A stretch of DNA of 64,000 nucleotides from NCBI GenBank assembly GCA_945883745.1, contig CAMCYH010000002.1, forward strand, positions 1,508 to 65,507. The letters are read 5' to 3'. The notes beneath the pieces were generated by a model, which did not search any database, was not told the origin of the DNA, and saw only the letters and a list, made by a program, of their open reading frames with translations. Positions 5,215 to 38,000 of the stretch are shown in pieces. How positions within the stretch are numbered: position 1 is the first letter of the stretch; the number at the start of each line of letters is the position of its first letter. A program made the translations under genes and the position numbers. The stretch is from Candidatus Kuenenia stuttgartensis (lineage in GTDB: Bacteria > Planctomycetota > Planctomycetia > Pirellulales > UBA1268).

Positions 5215-6531
5215 ATGTTCATCGAGCGATCGACGGCGAAGATTCGCGGCGTGCGCACGCTCTTCGTGCTGCTCGGTGTCGTGCCCTGCGCAGCCCTGAT
5301 GACCTGGGCGGTGATGCGGCATGCTCCGGCCCATCGTGATGCCCTCCGCCGCCAGGGTGAGCAGGTTCTCGGAATTCCATTGAAGATTGGCTCGGTCGAA
5401 CACGTCCGCCCTGGTGCCTTGAGGCTGCGAGACTGCTCGCTGCTGGCCACGGGCGGCAGTCCCCTGCTCCTGCTGCCGGAGATCGAGGTGGAGACCTCGA
5501 GCGACGAGGTGCGGCTGCGGCTGCCGACGGTCGCCTGCAGGCCGGCCGCCGCGGCGGTGTTGGCGGGTGTGGCACGGGCCTGGCTGAATGAGCCGGTGCG
5601 GTTTTCCAGGGCGTGGGTCATCGAGGTGGGGGCGGTGAACTGGGACGTCCCGCTCACGGCGTCGACTCGCCACGACCCTGCCGCCTCTGAAGGTCGCGAA
5701 GCCTTTCCGCTGCGGATCGAGTGCGTTGCGGCCGGTGACTCTCGTGCGGTTCGCATCCACCGTGTCGATCGAGGGCATGAAGGGGACGAGTTGCGGGTAA
5801 TCGCCACCGCCGGCAGTCCGTGGCGGCACGAGGTTCGCGGAGTGGTTCGCACGCCTATTCCATGGGCCGTGGTGCGGGAAGTGGTGCCCGCGTCACTTGG
5901 CAGGCCGGAACTCGGGCCTGCCGCGATGGTCAGTGGCCAGGTGGAGGCGTCGATTGCCAGCGGCGGCTGGTCTGGCGTTGCGAGCGGACTTGTGGAAGGA
6001 ATTCGTCTCGAGGAACTGGCATCCGGTGCGAGGCACTCCCTGGAGGGACTGCTGACGGTCGAGATCGAGCGGCTCCAATGGGATGATGACCGGCTTGTGT
6101 CCGTAACTGCTACCGGGTCGGCCGTCCGCGGCATGGTCGCCCAGTCGTTGCTCGGTGCGCTGGTGACGACCTGTGGGTGTCGGGCCGGTCCCGCGTTTCA
6201 GTCGCTCTCCAGCGAGCCCATGCGGGCCTTCGACGACCTCAAGGTGCGGTTGGTGATCGATAGCGGCGGGCTTCGTATTCTCTCTGGCGAGAACCGCAAC
6301 GGTTCGCTCGTCCGTCGGCAGGGGCTTTCGCTGGTCGATGAGCCTGCCGGTGTGGTGCCACTGGATCGACTGGCTTGGCTTGTCGGGCCCGCCGACGCAC
6401 CGACAGTGCCGGCCTCGGCGGCGACATCATGGCTGATGCGGCTCCTGCCGACGGCGGTCTCCCAGCCGCGACGCAGCGAAAACACCGCCATCCGCCCCCC
6501 CGATCAGACCCGCAAGAAGAGCGATTTTTGA
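5215..6531 (+). CDS. Hypothetical membrane-anchored protein
   Basis: ATG at 5215 is preceded by GAGGAA. One N-terminal hydrophobic helix (LFVLLGVVPCAALMTWAV). No motif I recognise. Coding-like GC3. Confidence 0.5.
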   Translation: MFIERSTAKIRGVRTLFVLLGVVPCAALMTWAVMRHAPAHRDALRRQGEQVLGIPLKIGSVEHVRPGALRLRDCSLLATGGSPLLLLPEIEVETSSDEVRLRLPTVACRPAAAAVLAGVARAWLNEPVRFSRAWVIEVGAVNWDVPLTASTRHDPAASEGREAFPLRIECVAAGDSRAVRIHRVDRGHEGDELRVIATAGSPWRHEVRGVVRTPIPWAVVREVVPASLGRPELGPAAMVSGQVEASIASGGWSGVASGLVEGIRLEELASGARHSLEGLLTVEIERLQWDDDRLVSVTATGSAVRGMVAQSLLGALVTTCGCRAGPAFQSLSSEPMRAFDDLKVRLVIDSGGLRILSGENRNGSLVRRQGLSLVDEPAGVVPLDRLAWLVGPADAPTVPASAATSWLMRLLPTAVSQPRRSENTAIRPPDQTRKKSDF

Positions 6532-10373: not shown

Positions 10374-11183
10374 ATGTCGTCAGCAGACGAATCGTCGTCA
10401 GCCCGCGCGGAGACATACGCGGAGTTTGCGGCTCTCGTGGGCGCCCTTGCCCACGAGATCCGCAACCCGCTTTCCACGATCCGGCTCAACATGGAACTCT
10501 TGGCGGAGGACTTCGAGACCAGCGATCCCGAATCCACGACCAAGCAGCGGGATCGTCGTGCCAAGGCCAAGATCGACCTCGTGCGGCAGGAGTGTGATCG
10601 GCTCCAGAAACTCCTCGGTGACTTTCTCGATTTTGCCCGGCAGGAATCGCTGACGCTCGAGCCGGCGAATCTCAACGTCGAGTTGTCGCAGTTGCTCGAC
10701 TTTTTTGCGCCGCAGGCCCGTGAGGCCGAGGTCGAGGTCGTCCGCTATCTCGACCCCGAATTGCCCAACGTGCGGCTCGACCGCGAGACATTCCGGTCGG
10801 CTGTGCTCAACCTGCTCATCAATGCCGTGCAGGCCATGGACGCCGGGGGGCAGATGGTGGTGCGTACCCGGGCCTCAGGGCTGGGCGTGATCCTTGAACT
10901 GATCGACACCGGGCCGGGCATGGATCCGGAGACGTTGGCGAAGGTCTTCCGCGCCTTCTACACCACCAAGCAGGGAGGTTCTGGCCTCGGCCTGCCGACG
11001 GCCCGCAAGATCGTGGAGGCCCATGGCGGCACGATCGACGTCGAGAGCGCTCCGGGCCGTGGAACGAAGGTGACGATCTGGCTTCCCGCTCCGCCACGGT
11101 TGCCGACCGGCGGACGAGCCCTTCGGGGCGACCCGCAGCCGCTGCAACTGGACGCTGCGCCGCATGGCTTCGTACCATCGTGA
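10374..11183 (+). CDS. Soluble histidine kinase without recognisable input domain
   Basis: The H-box [11 protein letters not shown] starts about 25 aa from the N-terminus. HATPase N and G boxes present ([22 protein letters not shown]). No TM segment. SD GAGGGAGG upstream. Confidence 0.85.
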
Positions 11184-11229
11184 TCGCCGCGACCCCTTCA
11201 AGCCATCACCTTTTTTTCGCTCCGTCGCC

Positions 11230-12660
11230 ATGCCCACCCCCCGTGAATCAGTCGCCCATTCGATCGAGCCTGGATCACAGGAACTCGTCGCCGTGCTCGT
11301 GGTCGACAATGACATTGTGCATGCTCGCACGATGGGCGAGTGCCTAAGCCGACTGGGCTACCGGGTCACCGTGGTGGGGAGCGGCACCGAGGGGGCCAAA
11401 AAGATCACCGCCGAAACGTTTGACGTCGTCGTCACCGATCTGATGATGAACGACATCGGGGGGCTCGACATCCTCATGCGGGCCAAGGCGGCCTGCCCCG
11501 AGACCGAGGTGATCGTGGTCACCGGTCACGGCACCGTCCCCTCGGCCGTGTCAGCGATGCAGCAGGGAGCCTTTACCTACCTTCAGAAGCCACTCGACAT
11601 GGGGCACCTGCGGACCGCCGTGGAGAAGGCCTCGGAAGGAGTGCGACTGAAGCGGCAGAACATCGAGCTCAACCGCCGGCTCGACGAAAAGTTTGGCTTC
11701 GAGGGGGTGGTTGGGTCGAGTCCGCAGATGCTGGCCCTCATCGAGCGACTCAAGAGGATCGCACCGACCGACGCGACCGTGCTGATCCAGGGAGAGACAG
11801 GCACCGGGAAGGAATTGGTGGCCCAGGCGATCCACCAGAACAGTCCGCGGAAGACGAAGCCGTTCGTGGCTCTCAACTGCGCCGCGCTCAGTGAAAACAT
11901 CCTTGAGAGCGAACTGTTCGGCCATGTAAGGGGAGCCTTTACCGACGCCTCGAGCGACCGCGTCGGAAAGTTCGAGTACGCCAACGGCGGTACGCTGTTT
12001 CTCGACGAGGTTGGGGACATGCCGATGCCGACCCAGATCAAACTCCTCCGGGTTCTGGAGTCGGGGGATATCACTCGTGTCGGCTCCAACACACCTGTGA
12101 AAGTCAATGTTCGTATCCTCTCAGCCACCAATCGCAACCTCGAGGAGGCGATCGCCTCGGGCCAGTTCCGCAGCGATCTCTATCACCGGCTTAAGGTGGT
12201 CACGATCGCCATCCCCACGCTGCAGGAGAGAGCCGCCGACATCCCGCTCCTGATCGAGCACTTCGTCAGACAGTTTGCCTCCCGGCACGGCAAGACGATC
12301 AGGGGCATGTCGGCGGCGGCCCGGGCGAAACTGGCCGCCTATGCCTGGCCGGGCAATGTCCGTCAGTTACGAAATGTGATCGAAAGCATGGTGGTCGTCG
12401 ACTGTGACGGTACGCTCGACGTCGACGACCTGCCGCTGGAATTGGAGCCGGATGTTGCCGTCCCGTTGGTCGAAGCGGCCCATGTCGATGCACCAGGCGG
12501 CATCACCGCGCTCGTGGGCCGCCCGCTCGAGGAGATCGAGCGGGTCTTCATCAGCGAAACGCTCAAGCTCACTGGTGGCAACCGGGAGCAGGCCGCTGAA
12601 ATGCTCGGCATCGGCGAGCGGACCCTGTATCGCAAGATCAAGGAATATCAGATCACCTGA
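11230..12660 (+). CDS. Sigma-54-dependent response regulator (NtrC/AtoC family enhancer-binding protein)
   Basis: Receiver domain (VLVVDND...VVTDLMM), AAA+ sigma-54 interaction domain ([21 protein letters not shown]) and C-terminal Fis-type HTH ([19 protein letters not shown]). Confidence 0.9.
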
Positions 12661-22288: not shown

Positions 22289-22317
22289 GATTGGGCTCCT
22301 GTCGGCGGGGGACGACC

Positions 22318-24715
<2,398 letters not shown>

Positions 24716-24764
24716 CGTTGGTGTGCCCTACGCTCCGTGGTGCCAGGTCGTCTGAGTCTGTGGA

Positions 24765-26315
24765 TCAGCCTGCCGCGCCGGCCAGTTGCCGCTTTCCCTC
24801 ACCCGCTCCGGCGGCCCACTGCCGCTTGAACTCCGCGATTGCCGCCTCCAGCTGCCGCTCGCTTTCGGCGTCGAGTTCCTTCGAGTCCTTGATTCGGTTT
24901 CGCAGTTCCGACACCTGCTCTCTGACGAACGTGAGGAAGCCCTTCTCCCACGCCGCCACGTCCTCCCGCTTTACGGCATCGAGGTGTCCGCGGGTTCCCG
25001 CATAGATCGAGAGCACCTGATCGACCATCTCCATCGGCTGGTACTGTCCTTGCTTGAGCAACTCGACCATCCGGTAACCGCGGTCAAGCCGTTGCTGGGT
25101 GGCGGCGTCGAGGTCGGTGCCGAGTTGGGCAAAGGCCTCGAGTTCACGGAAGCTTGCCAGATCGAGACGGAGGCCGCCGGCGACTTTCTTCATTGCCTTG
25201 GTCTGGGCGGCACCACCCACGCGGGAGACCGAGATGCCGACATTCATGGCCGGCCGCTGACCGGCGAAGAACAGGTCGGGCTGCAGATAAATCTGACCGT
25301 CGGTGATCGAGATCACGTTGGTCGGGATGTAGGCCGAAACCTCGCCTTCGAGCGTCTCGATGATCGGCAAACTCGTGAGGGAGCCCCCGCCAAGTTCTTG
25401 GGAGAGTTTGGAGGACCGTTCGAGCAGGCGACTGTGGGCGTAGAACACGTCACCGGGGTAGGCCTCACGCCCTGGCGGTCGCCGCATCAGGAGGGAGAGC
25501 TGACGGTATGCCGTCGCCTGCTTGGAGAGGTCGTCATAGACGATCAGGGCGTGTTGGCCATTGTACATAAAGTGCTCGGCCATCGCGGTACCCGAGTAGG
25601 GCGCAATGTACTGCAGCGGAGCAGCTGTGCTGGCCCCTGCCACGATCACGGTGGTGTAATCCATGGCGCCGTGTTTGCGGAGCACATCGATCGCCACGGC
25701 GACAGACGAATCCTTCTGCCCCACGGCGACGTAGAAGCATTTCACGCCACTGTTCTTCTGATTGATGATGGCGTCGATGCCGATGGCAGTTTTGCCGGTC
25801 TTTCGGTCGCCGATGATCAGTTCGCGCTGGCCGCGGCCGATCGGTGTCATGGCATCAACGGCCTTGATGCCGGTCTGCAATGGCTCGCGCACCGGAGACC
25901 GTTCGGCCACGCCGGGCGCGAGGGTTTCCACCGGCCGCCGCTGGTCGGTCACCACCGGTCCTTTGCCATCCAGCGGATTGCCGAGCGGATCGAGCACGCG
26001 GCCGATGACGGCGTCGCCTACCGGCACCGACAGCAGCCGGCCCGTACTCTTCACCTCGTCTCCCTCGGTCACCTTGAGGTAGTCGCCGAGGATGATCACA
26101 CCGACAGAGTTTTCTTCAAGATTGAAGGCGAGGCCGGTGATGCCTCCAGGAAACTCGACCATCTCGCCCGCCATCACGCCGGAGAGACCCCACACGCGGG
26201 CGATGCCGTCGCCCACTTCGAGAACCCGCCCGACCTGACGGACATCGATGCCCGACTCGTAGCGGATGATTTCTTCACGAAGGACGGATGCGATCTCGTC
26301 GGTCAGGTTTGCCAT
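24765..26315 (-). CDS. atpA: F1 ATP synthase alpha subunit
   Basis: P-loop GDRKTGKT, then the [10 protein letters not shown]-like [13 protein letters not shown] and [12 protein letters not shown] motifs. Confidence 0.97.
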
Positions 26316-26950
26316 GAGTATTCCCCAGTTTGGAGGGCGGAAATGTTTCGTTGCCGAAGCCGGTCGCCAAGCCGCGTCAGACTGGTGGCTACCGATTGGT
26401 CGTAAATCGTGTCGCCGACCCGCACGATGAGGCCGCCGACGATGGCTGGGTCGACGAAGAACGAGGGCCGCAGCGAGATCGCCAACGCACGTTGTACCTC
26501 CGCGACGACACGTTGCTGCCCATCAGGATCGAGGGGCACGGCGGTGGTGAACACCGCCTCGTGAATGCCCTCCAACTCATCGGCGAACCGGCCAGCAGCG
26601 GCTGCCACCTCCGGCAGGACCCCGAGACGACCGTGGCGGGCGAGCACGTGGAGCGCGTGGGTCGTGGTGGGACGGAGCCGCCCGGCGGCAAGGCGGTCGA
26701 TAATCGCCTGTTTTTGATCGATCGAGACCTTTGGTGAGGCAAACACGCTTACCGCCTGGGGCACTCGTGGCAGCACATCGCGGGCCAAGGCAGTCAACTC
26801 GTCGATCACCTCGCGACGGCAGCCGGCAGCATCGGCAGCCTCAACGATGGCCCGCGCGTACACCTTCGCTACGTGCTCGGTGCCGATGTCGACGCCGAAA
26901 TGGCCTGCCGCCCCACCGGTCTGTTCTGTCGTGTCGTGCCCCATGGGCAT
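26303..26950 (-). CDS. atpH: F1 ATP synthase delta (OSCP) subunit
   Basis: Its position between atpF and atpA, plus [12 protein letters not shown] and [16 protein letters not shown] motifs. Start 26950 has GGAG upstream. Its 3' end overlaps the atpA start. Confidence 0.85.
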
Positions 26951-32180: not shown

Positions 32181-32444
32181 ATGAGTTTTTTCGAGTGGTT
32201 GCGGGAAGGTGTGCGGCAGGCTGTTGTGCTGGGACTGGCCGATGCGGTCGAGGATGTTGGCACGCGGAACCGGGGCGAAGACCTTGGCCCCGCGTTGGCC
32301 CAGTCGCTCCGAGAGCGGCTCACGGAGTCGAGCGGCACGGCCGTGTTGGACTCTGATCCGACCCTGGCAGGAAAGGCAAAGGGCCGCCGGCGACTTGGCC
32401 GCTCGCTCGATGTGACTGTGGATTCGTTGCGGAAAGCAGCCTGA
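32181..32444 (+). CDS. Small hypothetical protein (87 aa)
   Basis: ATG at 32181 with GGGGAG 6 nt upstream and coding-like third-position GC. No recognisable motif. Confidence 0.45.
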   Translation: MSFFEWLREGVRQAVVLGLADAVEDVGTRNRGEDLGPALAQSLRERLTESSGTAVLDSDPTLAGKAKGRRRLGRSLDVTVDSLRKAA

Positions 32445-32466: not shown

Positions 32467-33267
32467 CTACGACCGATTGGGCGGGGGAGATTTCGGCACG
32501 TCAACGACGTGGGTAATGCCGTTGAGTTCATCGGGGGGCACGGCTGCGAAGGTGATCTCCGGGAGGGAAACGATGGCCCGACGGAGTTCTCGTTCCCAAC
32601 TGGAGCGGATCTCACCGAGTTCGGCGTCGGGCACTCCGAATCGTCGATAGCGGCGGACGCACAGGTCGTCGTTGGCGTAGACGAGCAGGTCGATCGGGGG
32701 GCCGACTGCCACGTTGGAACGCATCGTGGAGTCGATCGAAATGACGGCATACTTCACGGCCTGCTCGAGCGTTGTTTCCGCGTAGCGAATGCCCCGGTCG
32801 AGGATCGGCCTGCCGTACTTGCTCTCGCCGATTTGAAGAAACGGCGATGATTGGGTGGCCCGGAGAGGGTTGCCCTGAGCGTAGATCATGTAGACCTGCG
32901 GAGCTTCGTCCGCGATCTGGCCGCCGAGCAGGAAATTGACTCCGCACGAGATGCCGTCCCGCTCCATGAACGGCCGGTCCAGAGCCGTGACCTCCCGCAC
33001 ATGGCGGCCCACGCAGCGGGCTGCCTCGTAGAACGTGCCGGCCGTGACCAGGCCCGCACCGCTGCAAAACTCCTGCTCGATCCGTGTGATGATCGACTGG
33101 GTGAGCGAGAGGCTGCCACTGGAAAGGAGCGTGAACATCCGCTGCCCGGGAATCACGAAGTTGTGCATCTTGCAACAGATGTCAACCTGGTCGATGCCAG
33201 CGTTGGTGCGGGAGTCCGATGCCATGACCAGCCCCTGCTTGGTACGAATCCCGAGACAGTACGTCAT
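32467..33267 (-). CDS. Anbu-type proteasome-like (Ntn-hydrolase) peptidase
   Basis: It starts MTYCLGIRTKQGLVMASDSRTNAG, so Thr2 sits where proteasome beta/HslV-like enzymes carry the nucleophile, with no propeptide. About 266 aa. It neighbours the ATP-grasp/alpha-E/transglutaminase genes typical of Anbu loci. Confidence 0.82.
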   Translation of the reverse strand: MTYCLGIRTKQGLVMASDSRTNAGIDQVDICCKMHNFVIPGQRMFTLLSSGSLSLTQSIITRIEQEFCSGAGLVTAGTFYEAARCVGRHVREVTALDRPFMERDGISCGVNFLLGGQIADEAPQVYMIYAQGNPLRATQSSPFLQIGESKYGRPILDRGIRYAETTLEQAVKYAVISIDSTMRSNVAVGPPIDLLVYANDDLCVRRYRRFGVPDAELGEIRSSWERELRRAIVSLPEITFAAVPPDELNGITHVVDVPKSPPPNRS

Positions 33268-33413
33268 CTTTTTTTCCGGGAAGGCCTCTGGAACCGGCGC
33301 GGTATTTGCTGCACATTGACAGACAGACCGAAAGGTAGCGAACCCGTGCGGTGCGTCAAGGAAAACAGATGCGGTACGATCGGGGTACGTCGGCAACTGC
33401 GCAGGGTTGAGGC

Positions 33414-34988
33414 ATGGGCAGCCCGTTTCACGAGCAGGTCCGATCGGCGATGACTACCCCCGGCATAACCCAGCGACGAGCGGCGGGAACGGGCTCGGCC
33501 GGAGCGGCCGAACCACTTTCTGGTGAATCTGCTCCGGCCACCAGCCTCCTTGCCGGCTATGAGCTGGGGGCCGCGTACGACGAAATGTTTGACCGCGACG
33601 AGCGTCCTCGTCCCCACTATCAGCAGCTGGCCCAGCTGCTTGATCGAACGCCGCCCGAGGAATTCCGCCGCCGCAAAGCGATGACTGACCTTTCGATGCG
33701 GCAAGACGGTGTCGGCTTTACCGTGTATCGCGCCGACGAGGGCATTGAGCGGGTCTGGCCGATGGATCCGGTGCCGCGGATCATCCCCGCCGACGAGTGG
33801 CAGCACATCGAGGCCGGGCTCGTGCAGCGGATCACCGCCCTCAACATGTTCCTGTGGGACGTCTACCACGAGCAGCAGATCCTTCGCGATCGCGTCGTTC
33901 CACCCCGACTGGTGCTCCAGGGAAGTTCGTTCCGGCGCGAGTTCGTCGGCGTTGACGTGCCGCGGAAGATCTACATTCACATCTGTGGTACCGACCTGAT
34001 CCGTGCGGTTGACGGCGAGTATCTCGTGCTCGAGGACAACGGCCGCACCCCCTCCGGCGTGAGCTACATGCTCCAAAATCGGCAGGTCCTCAAGCGGGTT
34101 TTTCCGTCGCTCTTCAACGACTACGACGTGTTGCCCAATGATGATTACCCGGCCGCCCTGCTCGATGTGCTTCAGTACATCGCCCCGGAGTCGGCTGCAA
34201 CGCCGACCGCCGTGCTGCTCAGTCCTGGCATGTACAACTCCGCCTACTTCGAGCACAGCTTCCTTGCCCAGCGGATGGGAATCGAGCTCGTCGAGGGGCG
34301 TGATCTGCTCGTCGATGCCAATCGTGTCTTCATGCGGACGACGCGGGGGCTGCAGCGGGTCGACGTGATCTACCGCCGGATCGACGACGACTTTCTCGAT
34401 CCGCTCACGTTCCGTCCGGATAGCGTGCTTGGCGTGCCAGGACTGGTAAACGCCTATCGGGCGGGCAACGTGGCGCTGGCCAACAGCATCGGCACCGGCA
34501 TCGCCGACGACAAGGGGATCTATCCGTTCGTGCCGGACATGATCCGCTACTACCTCAAGCAGGATCCGATCCTCAACAACGTCGAGACGTTCCGGCCCGA
34601 GGTGCCTGAGCACATGCAGCACGTACTGGCAAACCTCGACTCACTGGTGGTGAAGCGGGTGAATGAATCGGGCGGCTACGGCATGCTCGTGGGCCCCGCC
34701 TCGACGGCCGAGCAGCGGGAGGAATTCCGGCGGGCAATCCGGGCCAATCCACGGGATTTCATCGCCCAGCCCACGATCCAGCTGTCGACGCACCCGACCT
34801 TCGTCGACGGGCGGCTTGAGGGGCGTCATCTCGACCTGCGCCCATTCGTGCTGTGTGGCGAACGGGTCGTCGTCACGCCGGGCGGGCTGACCCGCGTCGC
34901 CCTGCCCAAGGGAAGCCTCGTGGTGAACAGTTCCCAGGGGGGGGGCAGCAAAGACACCTGGATCCTCGCCCAGACCGGCCGGACGTGA
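33414..34988 (+). CDS. Circularly permuted ATP-grasp family protein
   Basis: The N-terminal YDEMF...RPHY region plus [21 protein letters not shown] and [17 protein letters not shown] segments match what I recall of the circularly permuted ATP-grasp family. The start could be 33450. Confidence 0.85.
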
Positions 34989-34995
34989 GGAACGC

Positions 34996-35946
34996 ATGCT
35001 GAGCCGAGTCGCCGACGCACTGTTTTGGACGGGCCGCTACCTGGAGCGTTCGGCCTGCCTGGCCCGTGCCGTCGACGTCACGTTCAGCCTCGATCTCGAC
35101 CTGCACGGTGTGCTTTCCAATCCGGTGGAGCTCGAATGGAACGCGCTGCTCTCGATGCTTCGGCAGGCGCCGCCGCAGCCGGGCGACAGCGAGCACCCGG
35201 TGGCCGCCGTTCAGCGGTGGCTGCTCGTCGATCTCGGCAATCCGGGCAGCGTCATGTCGTGCGTGAACCGGGCCCGCAACAATGCCCGCAGCATCCGCGG
35301 CTCGATCAGCCCGCCGATGTGGCGGGAGCTCAACAAGCTTCACTGGCGGCTCTCCGACGGGACGTTTCAGGCGGCAGTGGCTGAGTCACCGCACGACTTC
35401 TGCGACGAGGCGCAGGTGGGCGTGCTCCTCTGTCACGGGGTCTGCGATGCCACGATGAGTCATGACGAGGGCTGGCACTTCATCCAACTCGGCACCTACC
35501 TCGAACGGGCCGACAAGGTGCTGCGGCTACTCGATTCCAAGTTCGGACTTCTGGAGCGGGGCGACGCGGTCGATCTGCCGGTCCGCAATCTGCAGTGGGG
35601 GGCGGTGCTCCGGCAGTGCCGAGCCTACGAGGCCTATCAACGGCTCTACATCAGCCGCGTCGAGCCGGAGCGGGTGGTCGAGTTTCTGCTGGCCAACCCC
35701 GACTTTCCCAATTCGGTGCGGTTTTGCCTGGAGCGGGTGCTCGATTCACTCACCGAGATCAGCGGCCGGCTCCCGGGCCGTTGCGACGGCGACGCGATGC
35801 GGACACTCGGTAGCCTCGTGAGCGAACTCACCTATCTCGATGGTGAGGAACTCGATGGAGAGCGGCTCCATGGGCTGCTTGGAAACGCCCTCGTCCGCTG
35901 CGGGCGAATCGGGCATCTGCTGCAGCAGCAGTACGCACTTCACTGA
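34996..35946 (+). CDS. Alpha-E domain protein
   Basis: MLSRVADALFWTGRYLERS and a second LGTYLERADK contain the conserved ER motifs of the alpha-E family. GAGGAA SD is 5 nt upstream. Confidence 0.87.
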   Translation: MLSRVADALFWTGRYLERSACLARAVDVTFSLDLDLHGVLSNPVELEWNALLSMLRQAPPQPGDSEHPVAAVQRWLLVDLGNPGSVMSCVNRARNNARSIRGSISPPMWRELNKLHWRLSDGTFQAAVAESPHDFCDEAQVGVLLCHGVCDATMSHDEGWHFIQLGTYLERADKVLRLLDSKFGLLERGDAVDLPVRNLQWGAVLRQCRAYEAYQRLYISRVEPERVVEFLLANPDFPNSVRFCLERVLDSLTEISGRLPGRCDGDAMRTLGSLVSELTYLDGEELDGERLHGLLGNALVRCGRIGHLLQQQYALH

Positions 35947-35967
35947 AACCGGCGGAGACTCTCTGCG

Positions 35968-36921
35968 ATGATTCTCGAGATCCAGCACGAGACGCTGATG
36001 GAATACACCGAGCCGGTGACGGAATGGCAGTGCGAACTGCGGATGGAGCCGGTCAGCGATGCGGTCCAACGGTGCCATTCTTTCCGGGTCACGATCGGCC
36101 AGCCGACGACGGTGAGCACCTATGTCGACGGGTTTGGCAACCGGGTGCATCACTTCAATCTGCTCAAGCCCCATGCCGCTGTCCGGGTGCTCGCCGCGAG
36201 CATCGTGCAGACGGATGACGTGGCAGTCAGCCCGATGGCCAGCCAGGTCATGTTCCCGCTGGAGGAGGAGCGGCTTCCTCTCGACACGCTCGACGCCCTT
36301 CCCCTTCGTGGGCCGGTGCGGGATACCCCGTTGCTGGCCCCGCACCTGGAAGCGCTGAAGCCCTCGCCGCGAATGCGGGTGGGCATGTGGGTCTGCCAGG
36401 TGGCGGAATACGTCCGCGGCCGGTTTGAGTATGCCCGGCACGTCACCGATGCCACTTCGCCGATCGATCATCTCCTCACCCATGGCAAGGGAGTCTGTCA
36501 GGACTTCACGCACTTGATGATCGCTATCCTCCGCTCCCACGGCGTGCCGGCCCGGTACGTGAGCGGCTACGTGCATCGGCCCGCCCAGGAATCGCAGAGC
36601 CACGCCTGGTGCGAGGTCTGGCTTCCCGATGCCGGCTGGCTCGGCTTTGATCCCACGAACGGCTGCCCGGTCAACAGCCACTACGTGAAGACGGCTGTGG
36701 GGCGGGATTTTTCCGATGTCCCGCCCAACAAGGGCACCTACCGGGGCGGCGGTGACGAGCGGATCGAGGTGCGAGTGGCCACCCGCACGCTCGACAGACT
36801 GCCATCGCTGTCATGGCATGACCAACTCGCGCCACTCGACACCCCGCTCCATGCCGTGCTCCGGTCGCCACCGGTTTACGAGTCTGAAGATTCCCGGCCG
36901 CTCGATCTCGCCCAGCAGTGA
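35968..36921 (+). CDS. Transglutaminase-like cysteine peptidase/ligase family protein
   Basis: N-terminal bacterial transglutaminase-N-like region, then the Cys-His-Asp core (GKGVCQDFTHL, HAWCEVW, GFDPTNG). Confidence 0.9.
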   Translation: MILEIQHETLMEYTEPVTEWQCELRMEPVSDAVQRCHSFRVTIGQPTTVSTYVDGFGNRVHHFNLLKPHAAVRVLAASIVQTDDVAVSPMASQVMFPLEEERLPLDTLDALPLRGPVRDTPLLAPHLEALKPSPRMRVGMWVCQVAEYVRGRFEYARHVTDATSPIDHLLTHGKGVCQDFTHLMIAILRSHGVPARYVSGYVHRPAQESQSHAWCEVWLPDAGWLGFDPTNGCPVNSHYVKTAVGRDFSDVPPNKGTYRGGGDERIEVRVATRTLDRLPSLSWHDQLAPLDTPLHAVLRSPPVYESEDSRPLDLAQQ

Positions 36922-36929
36922 CCACGAGG

Positions 36930-38000
36930 TCAGTCGGCTGCCACGTGGAGTGGCAGATCGACCTCGACGGCCGCCCCCTGCTCTGGCGATGAACGGATCA
37001 CCGCTTCGCTGCCGAGGAGCCGGGCTCGCTGGCGAATGCCCTCCAGCCCGAAGCGATTCTCCGGCACTCTGCTGGGATCGAAGCCGACACCATCGTCCCG
37101 GATGGACACTCTTATGCGTTGCTGCGGTTCCGCTCCGGTCGCCTCGATACACACGTCGACCCGGTTTGCCGCCGCATGCCGACGGGCATTGGAAAGCGAC
37201 TCTTGCACGATGCGGAAGATCGTCGTTTCGAGTTGGGGTGTCAGGCGACCGGCCGGTAATGAATGGGTGAACATCACGTGGGGCACGTCGATGCGAGCGT
37301 CGGCGACGAGCGACTCGACGGCCTCGATGATGCCCAGTTCATCGAGCGTCGGCGGGCGGAGCCCGCTGATCAGCCGCCGCGACTCGTCGACGGCTTCGCG
37401 GAGCAACCGCAGGCTCTCGTGGAGTTCGCGGCTCGGGCCGGCCGGCCCGGCGGCATGCTCGAGCGCCTGCAGATGCATCATCGCGCCGGCCAGGAACTGG
37501 GCGAGTCCATCGTGAATCTCGTAGGCGACAAGCTGCCGCTCCCGCTCCTGGATCTCGAGCATCTGCCGAAGCACCTGCCGCTCTCGATGGAGGGCGTCCT
37601 GTGACTTTTTGAGGGCCAGCATGTCCTCGGAATAGATGAGGGCGGCCTCGACTGTGCCGCCCACCAGGATTGGCACGCCCCGCACCGAGAAGCGGGCCTC
37701 TTCGCCAGACAGGAGGCGGACGGGGAATTCCTGTGCCTGCATCGACCCTGTTGAAAACACCAGCTCCAGGCTCTCTCGGATCGCGGCCTCGACATCGGGG
37801 GAGGCAAAGTCTCCGGGACCGCGGCCCACGACCTCGTCAGCTGAGCGACCGCCTTCGGCCCGGTTGGCAAAGAGGATGGTGCCGTCGCGATCGATCACCA
37901 GCATGAAGCCCGTGACCGCCCGGCAGGCGGCTTCCCACAGGGCGGCCGCGTCGGGGAGCGGTGCTGGGGGGGCGGTCTGGTGCGGGGGATCGGAAACCAT
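36930..38000 (-). CDS. PAS-domain sensor histidine kinase with HisKA_3-type (NarX-like) phosphoacceptor domain
   Basis: PAS-like N-terminus, H-box YEIHDGLAQFLAG, and an HATPase domain (NARRHAAA...DDGVGF...GLEGIRQRA). No TM segment and no adjacent response regulator. Confidence 0.85.
   Translation of the reverse strand: MVSDPPHQTAPPAPLPDAAALWEAACRAVTGFMLVIDRDGTILFANRAEGGRSADEVVGRGPGDFASPDVEAAIRESLELVFSTGSMQAQEFPVRLLSGEEARFSVRGVPILVGGTVEAALIYSEDMLALKKSQDALHRERQVLRQMLEIQERERQLVAYEIHDGLAQFLAGAMMHLQALEHAAGPAGPSRELHESLRLLREAVDESRRLISGLRPPTLDELGIIEAVESLVADARIDVPHVMFTHSLPAGRLTPQLETTIFRIVQESLSNARRHAAANRVDVCIEATGAEPQQRIRVSIRDDGVGFDPSRVPENRFGLEGIRQRARLLGSEAVIRSSPEQGAAVEVDLPLHVAAD

Follow-up and report, generated by a model that had tools for sequence, protein, structure and literature searches.

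A chromosomal Anbu module of Pirellulales with a divergent Anbu gene and a conserved control region

The module and its four proteins

What lies at positions 32467 to 36921 of the 64,000 nucleotide (nt) window analyzed here, a stretch deposited under the name Candidatus Kuenenia stuttgartensis and placed by GTDB in the Pirellulales (GenBank assembly GCA_945883745.1, contig CAMCYH010000002.1, positions 1,508 to 65,507 of the forward strand)? The gene for the proteasome homolog Anbu stands there divergent from three closely spaced genes, which encode a circularly permuted ATP-grasp protein, an Alpha-E domain protein and a transglutaminase-like protein (Table 1). The locus is a further member of the Anbu system known since 2008, and its layout is normal for its lineage; new here are the conserved control region between the divergent genes, whose arrangement is permuted in this lineage, and the finding that the module is present or absent as a block. 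The plus-strand genes are separated by 7 nt (ATP-grasp and Alpha-E) and 21 nt (Alpha-E and transglutaminase-like). The divergent gap measures 146 nt with ATG 33414 as the ATP-grasp start and ~182 nt with ATG 33450. We consider ATG 33450, which would give a protein of 512 amino acids (aa), the more likely start, because ATG 33414 overlaps a conserved DNA site (site 1 in Table 1) and a conserved CGATG context follows. A longer Anbu open reading frame (ORF) from TTG 33396 was rejected: 13 homologs begin MTYC, the relatives examined all use the conserved ATG, and the extension crosses a conserved promoter motif.

Table 1. Genes and putative control elements of the module (positions in the window)
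Feature	Positions	Strand	Remarks
Anbu, proteasome-homologous N-terminal-threonine hydrolase	32467..33267	-	266 aa; starts MTYCLG, without propeptide
Sigma-54 type promoter motif CGGCGCGGTATTTGCT	33295..33310	+	-24 GG at 33296-7, -12 GC at 33308-9; toward ATP-grasp operon
Sigma-70-like promoter toward Anbu	33332..33359	-	-35 TTGACG (complement 33354-33359), 16 nt spacer, -10 TACCTT (complement 33332-33337)
Site 1 TGCGCAGGGTTGAGGCA	33398..33414		17 bp TGC-N11-GCA palindrome, putative NtrC-family activator type; TGC and GCA invariant in 19 loci
Site 2 AGCCCGTTTCACGAGCA	33420..33436		starts exactly 22 nt after site 1; first base degenerate in this sub-clade
Circularly permuted ATP-grasp amidoligase-like protein (COG2308)	33414..34988, likelier from ATG 33450	+	Pfam, 3n6x
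Alpha-E domain protein (PF04168, COG2307)	34996..35946	+	316 aa; two YLER motifs
Transglutaminase-like Cys-His-Asp protein (Bact_transglu_N + Transglut_core, COG1305)	35968..36921	+	317 aa

Each of the four proteins is an intact member of its family and carries the catalytic or signature residues. In Pfam searches the ATP-grasp protein matches CP_ATPgrasp_2 (2e-166) and CP_ATPgrasp_1 (2e-148) with 554 and 495 bits against cut-offs of 32 and 23, the Alpha-E protein matches Alpha-E (1e-80, 272 bits), the transglutaminase-like protein matches Bact_transglu_N (3e-18) and Transglut_core (7e-25), and the Anbu protein matches Proteasome (8e-08). Searches of the PDB sequences sharpen the last assignment: residues 2-237 align with the solved Anbu chains 5loy, 5lox, 5nyj, 5nyf and 5nyw at E values of 1e-52 to 1e-70, and with ordinary proteasome beta subunits at only 1e-3. 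Anbu residues Thr2, Asp18 and Lys33, which become Thr1, Asp17 and Lys32 after removal of the initiator Met, are invariant in 13 aligned homologs and are the residues named for Yersinia Anbu (PMC6376114). For the ATP-grasp protein the closest solved structure is 3n6x (E 1e-171, residues 54-518 aligned), and the transglutaminase-like protein matches 3isr (E 9e-14), with its triad formed by C177 in GVCQDF, H212 in SHAWCEVW and D228 in GFDPTN. The YLER motifs of the Alpha-E protein lie at residues 15-18 and 168-171, and E17, R18, E170 and R171 are invariant in 36 sequences. Its predicted structure is all-helical (14 helices; predicted local distance difference test, pLDDT, 89; predicted template-modeling score, pTM, 0.90). 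A Foldseek search of the PDB with this model returned no structural relative (best match only E 0.2, template-modeling score, TM, 0.38), and a search of the PDB with the sequence gave no match.

These results bear out a first-pass annotation that had been made from the sequence alone. The ORFs agree with its coordinates, its 7 and 21 nt gaps, the MTYCLG start and, if ATG 33414 is taken, the divergent gap of 146 nt; its four family assignments score far above the profile cut-offs and have matches in the PDB. Likewise, the residue-level readings held: a Thr2 exposed after Met removal within a Thr/Asp/Lys constellation, two ER motifs in the Alpha-E protein, and a Cys-His-Asp enzyme of transglutaminase fold.

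The published system to which that annotation linked the locus is indeed the Anbu operon (PMC3235984, PMC5666114, PMC6376114). The name Anbu was given in 2008 by Valas and Bourne, who also pointed out the operon that it forms with COG2307, COG2308 and COG1305 (PMC3235984). The locus described here and the operon described in 2008-2009 share the four families with their signature residues and the order of the first three genes, and neither has an AAA+ ATPase partner; in the window no AAA+ ATPase gene adjoins Anbu, and the ATP-grasp, Alpha-E and transglutaminase-like genes do. In the canonical operon the ATP-grasp, Alpha-E, transglutaminase and Anbu genes are co-directional, whereas here Anbu is inverted, upstream and divergent, and the protein carries a variable C-terminal tail of ~25 aa. 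With the solved Anbu structures (5LOX, 5LOY, 5NYF, 5NYJ and 5NYW, from Hyphomicrobium, other species and a consensus design) it shares Thr1, Asp17 and Lys32 as well as a Met-Thr start without a propeptide. The solved particles are helical or lock-washer (or double-ring) oligomers. By sequence, the planctomycete protein is probably of the 'Anbu-2' subtype of PMC5666114.

Gene order and co-inheritance in relatives

The closest loci come from metagenome-assembled Pirellulales and Planctomycetia genomes and share 77-95% Anbu identity. Anbu is divergent in every Pirellulales-type locus that keeps at least one flanking gene (23/23). In these divergent loci the transglutaminase, Alpha-E and ATP-grasp genes share one strand and Anbu lies on the other, the ATP-grasp gene adjoins Anbu wherever the contig extends far enough, and ATP-grasp identity ranges from 94% down to ~77%. 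The first-pass annotation was right that the usual co-directional order is broken by an inverted Anbu gene, and the inversion is no oddity; it is the conserved layout of a Pirellulales clade and not peculiar to the window. Among 80 alphaproteobacterial loci fetched with a Hyphomicrobium Anbu sequence as the query, ~67 have all four genes in the canonical co-directional order, and the others are truncated contigs with one exception. In this exception, L160 of the Hyphomicrobiales, the transglutaminase, Alpha-E and ATP-grasp genes lie on one strand and Anbu on the other. The L160 layout is an inversion independent of the Pirellulales one, with at least one such origin in the Alphaproteobacteria.

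The best evidence here that the divergent Anbu gene still belongs with the other three genes is provided by loci that have none of them. Two Planctomycetia loci, L087 and L088, have flanks like those of the window (an FHA-GAF-SpoIIE phosphatase, a small ORF, a PAS/HisKA_3 kinase, UvrB, an HHH protein and NadC) and lack all four genes; at 6318-6364, just 46 nt stand in place of the module, without a visible remnant. In L089 and L090, all four genes are present. The four-gene module is therefore gained or lost as a single block, even where it is split over two strands. The synteny survey, which the first-pass annotation had suggested as a check on co-conservation, found the four genes together in relatives and jointly absent in L087 and L088.

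Several observations on other loci stand apart from these. A second, shorter transglutaminase-core protein without Bact_transglu_N is often encoded divergent to Anbu, with the three-gene operon nearby or not. This pairing was seen in Acidobacteriota, Tepidisphaerales, Isosphaeraceae, Methylomirabilota, Armatimonadota and others, with examples in L036 (6954-7781), L052 (6958-7944) and ~25 other loci, among them L040, L045, L048-L052, L057, L059, L061, L063, L065, L067, L070, L073, L076, L077, L079-L081, L085 and L086. Because Anbu pairs divergently with this second gene in those loci, the arrangement suggests that a transglutaminase-fold protein is the closest functional partner of Anbu. Six loci whose records say 'Candidatus Kuenenia' or 'Chitinophagaceae' (L002, L004, L005, L012, L015 and L018) are 72-93% identical to the Pirellulales-type locus and are probably mis-binned or mislabeled metagenome bins. 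Three alphaproteobacterial loci, L113, L123 and L124, give the ATP-grasp gene in two or three separate tblastn pieces, which could reflect a frameshift, an assembly error or a partial duplication.

The control region between the divergent genes

The shared control region that the first-pass annotation had placed between the divergent genes is conserved, with recognizable promoter and activator-site motifs. An alignment of the Anbu/ATP-grasp intergenic region from 19 loci has a mean identity of 54%; its invariant columns are a GGCGC and a TTGC group, together with two TGC...GCA pairs, and the promoter spacer varies. The GGCGC and TTGC columns belong to a motif of the sigma-54 type that points toward the ATP-grasp operon, and CGGCGCGGTATTTGCT is the sole match within the window. 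This strict motif occurs in 25 of 29 control regions, the window included, against a background of 3.7e-5 per nt. A looser pattern, which the alphaproteobacterial promoters need, is found in 23 of 24 Pirellulales-type loci. On the Anbu strand, 18 of the 29 control regions (again counting the window) contain a TTGACG-N16-TAnnnT pattern whose distance to the sigma-54 motif is constant, and the blocks of this sigma-70-like promoter are conserved in the alignment; a promoter of its own for Anbu is a further difference from the known operon. Applying the usual promoter-to-start distances, we infer transcription starts at ~33322 on the plus strand and ~33325 on the minus strand, overlapping and facing each other. 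Because these predicted starts lie within a few base pairs of one another in opposed directions, two polymerases probably compete for the same DNA.

The second conserved element is a tandem pair of palindromes. Site 2 reads TGC-N11-GCA in most relatives, and in the Pirellulales loci the two starts are always 22 nt apart. A scan of 2.04 Mb of fetched loci for pairs spaced 19-23 nt placed 45 of 47 tandem TGC-N11-GCA pairs in the control region of an Anbu operon, in two phyla, Planctomycetota and Alphaproteobacteria. The position of the pair relative to the promoter differs between lineages. In the Pirellulales, the sites follow the sigma-54 promoter downstream at a distance of 104-117 nt and immediately precede the start codon. 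Among ten alphaproteobacterial loci with both motifs scored, they lie ~90 nt upstream of a TGGCC-N6-TTGC promoter in six, upstream but nearer in two, and downstream in two. In Tundrisphaera (L036), two sites are upstream of TGGTGC-N5-TTGCA.

Classical NtrC/sigma-54 promoters, such as the enterobacterial glnAp2, combine GG-N10-GC elements with two adjacent 17 bp TGC-N11-GCA sites ~100 bp away. The control region described here has the same promoter elements and the same two adjacent 17 bp sites at ~100 bp from the promoter. In contrast to glnAp2, the sites here fall on the transcribed side of the sigma-54 promoter and are separated from it by a divergent sigma-70-like promoter; they are likewise downstream, not upstream, in comparison with the known Anbu operon. 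The upstream sites of the six alphaproteobacterial loci and of Tundrisphaera represent the classical NtrC arrangement. The downstream position in the Pirellulales is likely explained by the inverted Anbu gene, which fills the upstream side. A second tandem match in the window, at 35899-35937, falls inside the Alpha-E gene at its 3' end, 31 nt short of the transglutaminase start. Relatives show no match at that position, so it is probably due to chance.

Could the conserved intergenic blocks instead be a structured 5' leader RNA, that is, a riboswitch or protein-binding hairpins controlling translation of the ATP-grasp gene? The tandem palindromes directly precede the start codon, hairpins can be drawn from them, and some inner palindrome positions look complementary. 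However, covariation was no better than in shuffled alignments (245/500 and 428/500), RNAalifold gave no consensus structure (covariation term -0.06), and there was no Rfam match, results on which we rejected the hairpin reading. Moreover, the only invariant positions are the outer TGC and GCA triplets, whose spacings of 11 nt and 22 nt are fixed, a pattern that a dimeric DNA-binding protein would be expected to leave, and those alphaproteobacterial sites that lie upstream of the promoter would be outside the transcript. We regard a leader RNA as highly improbable.

Function, regulation and neighboring genes

The Anbu operon is among the better-known bacterial systems that are conserved but unexplained, and it bears on the origin of the proteasome; the window offers no answer as to its function. 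A system for peptide synthesis or tagging, in which Anbu acts as the peptidase, was put forward by Iyer et al. (2009; cited through PMC5666114 and PMC6376114). For the Yersinia ATP-grasp protein, the reported activity is limited to ATP turnover, measured as phosphate release (PMC6376114), and the structural papers of 2017-2018 left the function unconfirmed (PMC5666114, PMC6376114). Our literature search, which included papers since 2019 and the COG and DUF names, found no functional study, substrate or role, only expression and metagenome-correlation data, so that the first-pass statement that neither substrate nor physiological role has been established still stands. The expression data point to nitrogen. 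In nitrogen-limited Pseudomonas putida the operon was the most up-regulated locus (note added in proof, PMC3235984), PP2685-87 rose 6.6 to 11 fold (PMC3325844), and in Burkholderia cenocepacia the cluster requires NtrC and sigma-54 (PMC5491218). In marine metagenomes, the domains of the operon co-vary with urea-metabolism domains (PMC3597751). The motifs described above suggest the same kind of sigma-54/NtrC-type control as in the published Pseudomonas and Burkholderia Anbu operons, and would extend this nitrogen and sigma-54 picture to Planctomycetota and Hyphomicrobiales.

With moderate confidence, we propose that the locus is a complete chromosomal Anbu module of Pirellulales under sigma-54/NtrC-type control, serving as a ligate-then-hydrolyze system in nitrogen shortage. 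As judged from the conserved motifs, the sigma-54 promoter would drive the ATP-grasp/Alpha-E/transglutaminase operon, an NtrC-family enhancer-binding protein at the two tandem sites, ~105 bp downstream in this lineage, would activate that promoter, and Anbu would be made from its own sigma-70-like promoter. Family knowledge and the published expression data suggest that nitrogen shortage would switch the module on. The ATP-grasp protein, with the Alpha-E protein as a partner or scaffold, may then use ATP to attach an amide linkage, peptide or isopeptide, to a peptide or protein; transfer, deamidation or cleavage of such a linkage may fall to the transglutaminase-fold enzyme, and Anbu may hydrolyze the product or tagged substrate. 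In outline, such a scheme would resemble the Pup ligase/Dop/proteasome pathway. With the Pup-proteasome of Actinobacteria (PafA, Dop and 20S) the module shares the general logic of encoding a proteasome-family peptidase together with an ATP-dependent carboxylate-amine ligase and an amide-bond hydrolase. However, the Pup ligase has a glutamine-synthetase-like fold and not an ATP-grasp fold, and the module here has no Pup-like tag gene, no AAA+ unfoldase and no demonstrated tagging; the likeness is an analogy only and not membership.

Several points weigh against this proposal. The sigma-54 motif is not significant in the window alone, since 41 of 100 shuffles yield at least one match, so its weight comes only from conservation, and both promoters are consensus matches plus conservation. 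Activator sites that lie downstream of a sigma-54 promoter and abut a start codon are an unusual arrangement, and a repressor could just as well use the tandem sites as its operator. In vitro, neither peptidase nor amidase activity has been seen with any Anbu, and a stable association between the operon proteins was likewise not observed (PMC6376114, PMC5666114). The coupling of Anbu to the ligase may be loose, because in many related genomes Anbu is solitary or accompanied only by the second transglutaminase-like gene. Finally, the window contains a candidate regulator and nothing that links it to the sites. This is a two-component pair at 10374-12660 (+), 21 kb from the tandem sites, which consists of a HisKA/HATPase kinase and an NtrC-family sigma-54 activator (11164-12660; REC, Sigma54_activat and HTH_8). 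The best NCBIfam match of the activator is ntrC at 438 bits, below the 558-bit equivalog cut-off, and it is an unproven binder of the tandem sites. Because the window encodes this activator with its kinase, the organism probably uses sigma-54, a point in favor of the proposed control; the gene for sigma-54 itself, rpoN, is not among the genes of the 64 kb window.

What else might the four genes do? The main rival, to which we give a limited chance, is that the three-gene operon serves small-molecule nitrogen scavenging or storage by making or breaking an amide-linked metabolite (for instance glutathionylspermidine-like or gamma-glutamyl) and does not tag proteins, with the role of Anbu confined to providing amino acids through bulk proteolysis in nitrogen starvation. 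The possibility is listed in PMC6376114, and it fits the deposition of 3n6x as a 'putative glutathionylspermidine synthase', the induction of the module under nitrogen limitation, the covariation of its domains with urea metabolism, and the lack of a tag-like small gene in the module, the small 87 aa ORF next to it being one that persists without the module. Against it stands the tight cross-phylum linkage to a peptidase of the self-compartmentalizing type and a transglutaminase-fold enzyme, for which a peptide or protein substrate is the easier explanation. Transglutaminase-fold enzymes normally act on proteins. The absence of general protease activity of Anbu in vitro (PMC5666114, PMC6376114) also speaks against a role in bulk proteolysis. 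We consider it improbable that Anbu is functionally independent of the other three genes in this lineage, the inversion having separated it and the adjacency being a remnant. Such independence would agree with its separate strand and sigma-70-like promoter, with the many loci in Acidobacteriota, Tepidisphaerales and elsewhere in which it stands alone or only with the second transglutaminase-like gene, and with its moderate constitutive expression in published data (PMC5666114). However, the divergent pair is kept at ATP-grasp identities of 70-94% with a fixed control-region architecture, all four genes are jointly absent in L087 and L088, and interleaved promoters with shared sites speak for coordinated rather than independent control.

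Returning to the proposed ligate-then-hydrolyze module under nitrogen control, we can imagine its control region as a compact two-way switch, in which the sigma-54 and sigma-70 starts oppose each other and an NtrC-type activator on the transcribed side picks the winning polymerase. This is a speculative idea that is rather unlikely to be correct. If it is true, then the tandem sites shared by distant phyla would mark out a regulator of the system, either dedicated to it or nitrogen-global, and would support a nitrogen-starvation tag-and-degrade pathway analogous to the Pup-proteasome. In any event, a cis-element of tandem TGC-N11-GCA sites by a sigma-54 promoter accompanies the operon from Planctomycetota to Alphaproteobacteria. 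It offers a direct route to the regulator and the inducing condition, which earlier in vitro work lacked, and suggests nitrogen limitation as the condition under which to search for the substrate.

The genes around the module are ordinary chromosomal ones, including those for ATP synthase, UvrB, NadC, TypA/BipA, PNPase and DnaE. The PAS/HisKA_3 kinase at 36930-38000 is unsupported as a sensor for the module, because it occupies the same place in loci without the module. Similarly, a convergent ORF of 87 aa at 32181-32444 (+), which ends 22 nt before the Anbu stop codon, was considered as a Pup-like tag or substrate and rejected: it always follows the FHA-GAF-SpoIIE phosphatase gene, including in loci where the Anbu module is absent, and so is not part of the module. 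The ORF is strongly conserved, notably in MSFFEWLREGVRQAVVLGLADAVEDVG..., in RRRLGRSL and in LRKAA, its invariant C-terminus. Sixteen fetched loci contain it, and it has 325 database matches, with all of the source-named ones from Planctomycetota. It is unannotated, matches no Pfam family and probably serves the FHA-GAF-SpoIIE phosphatase as a partner or substrate. Finally, we note that three successive long ORFs at 22291-26405 (+), of 501, 306 and 539 aa, have no Pfam match, and that their third-position GC of 0.62-0.67 is below the 0.75-0.83 of their neighbors.

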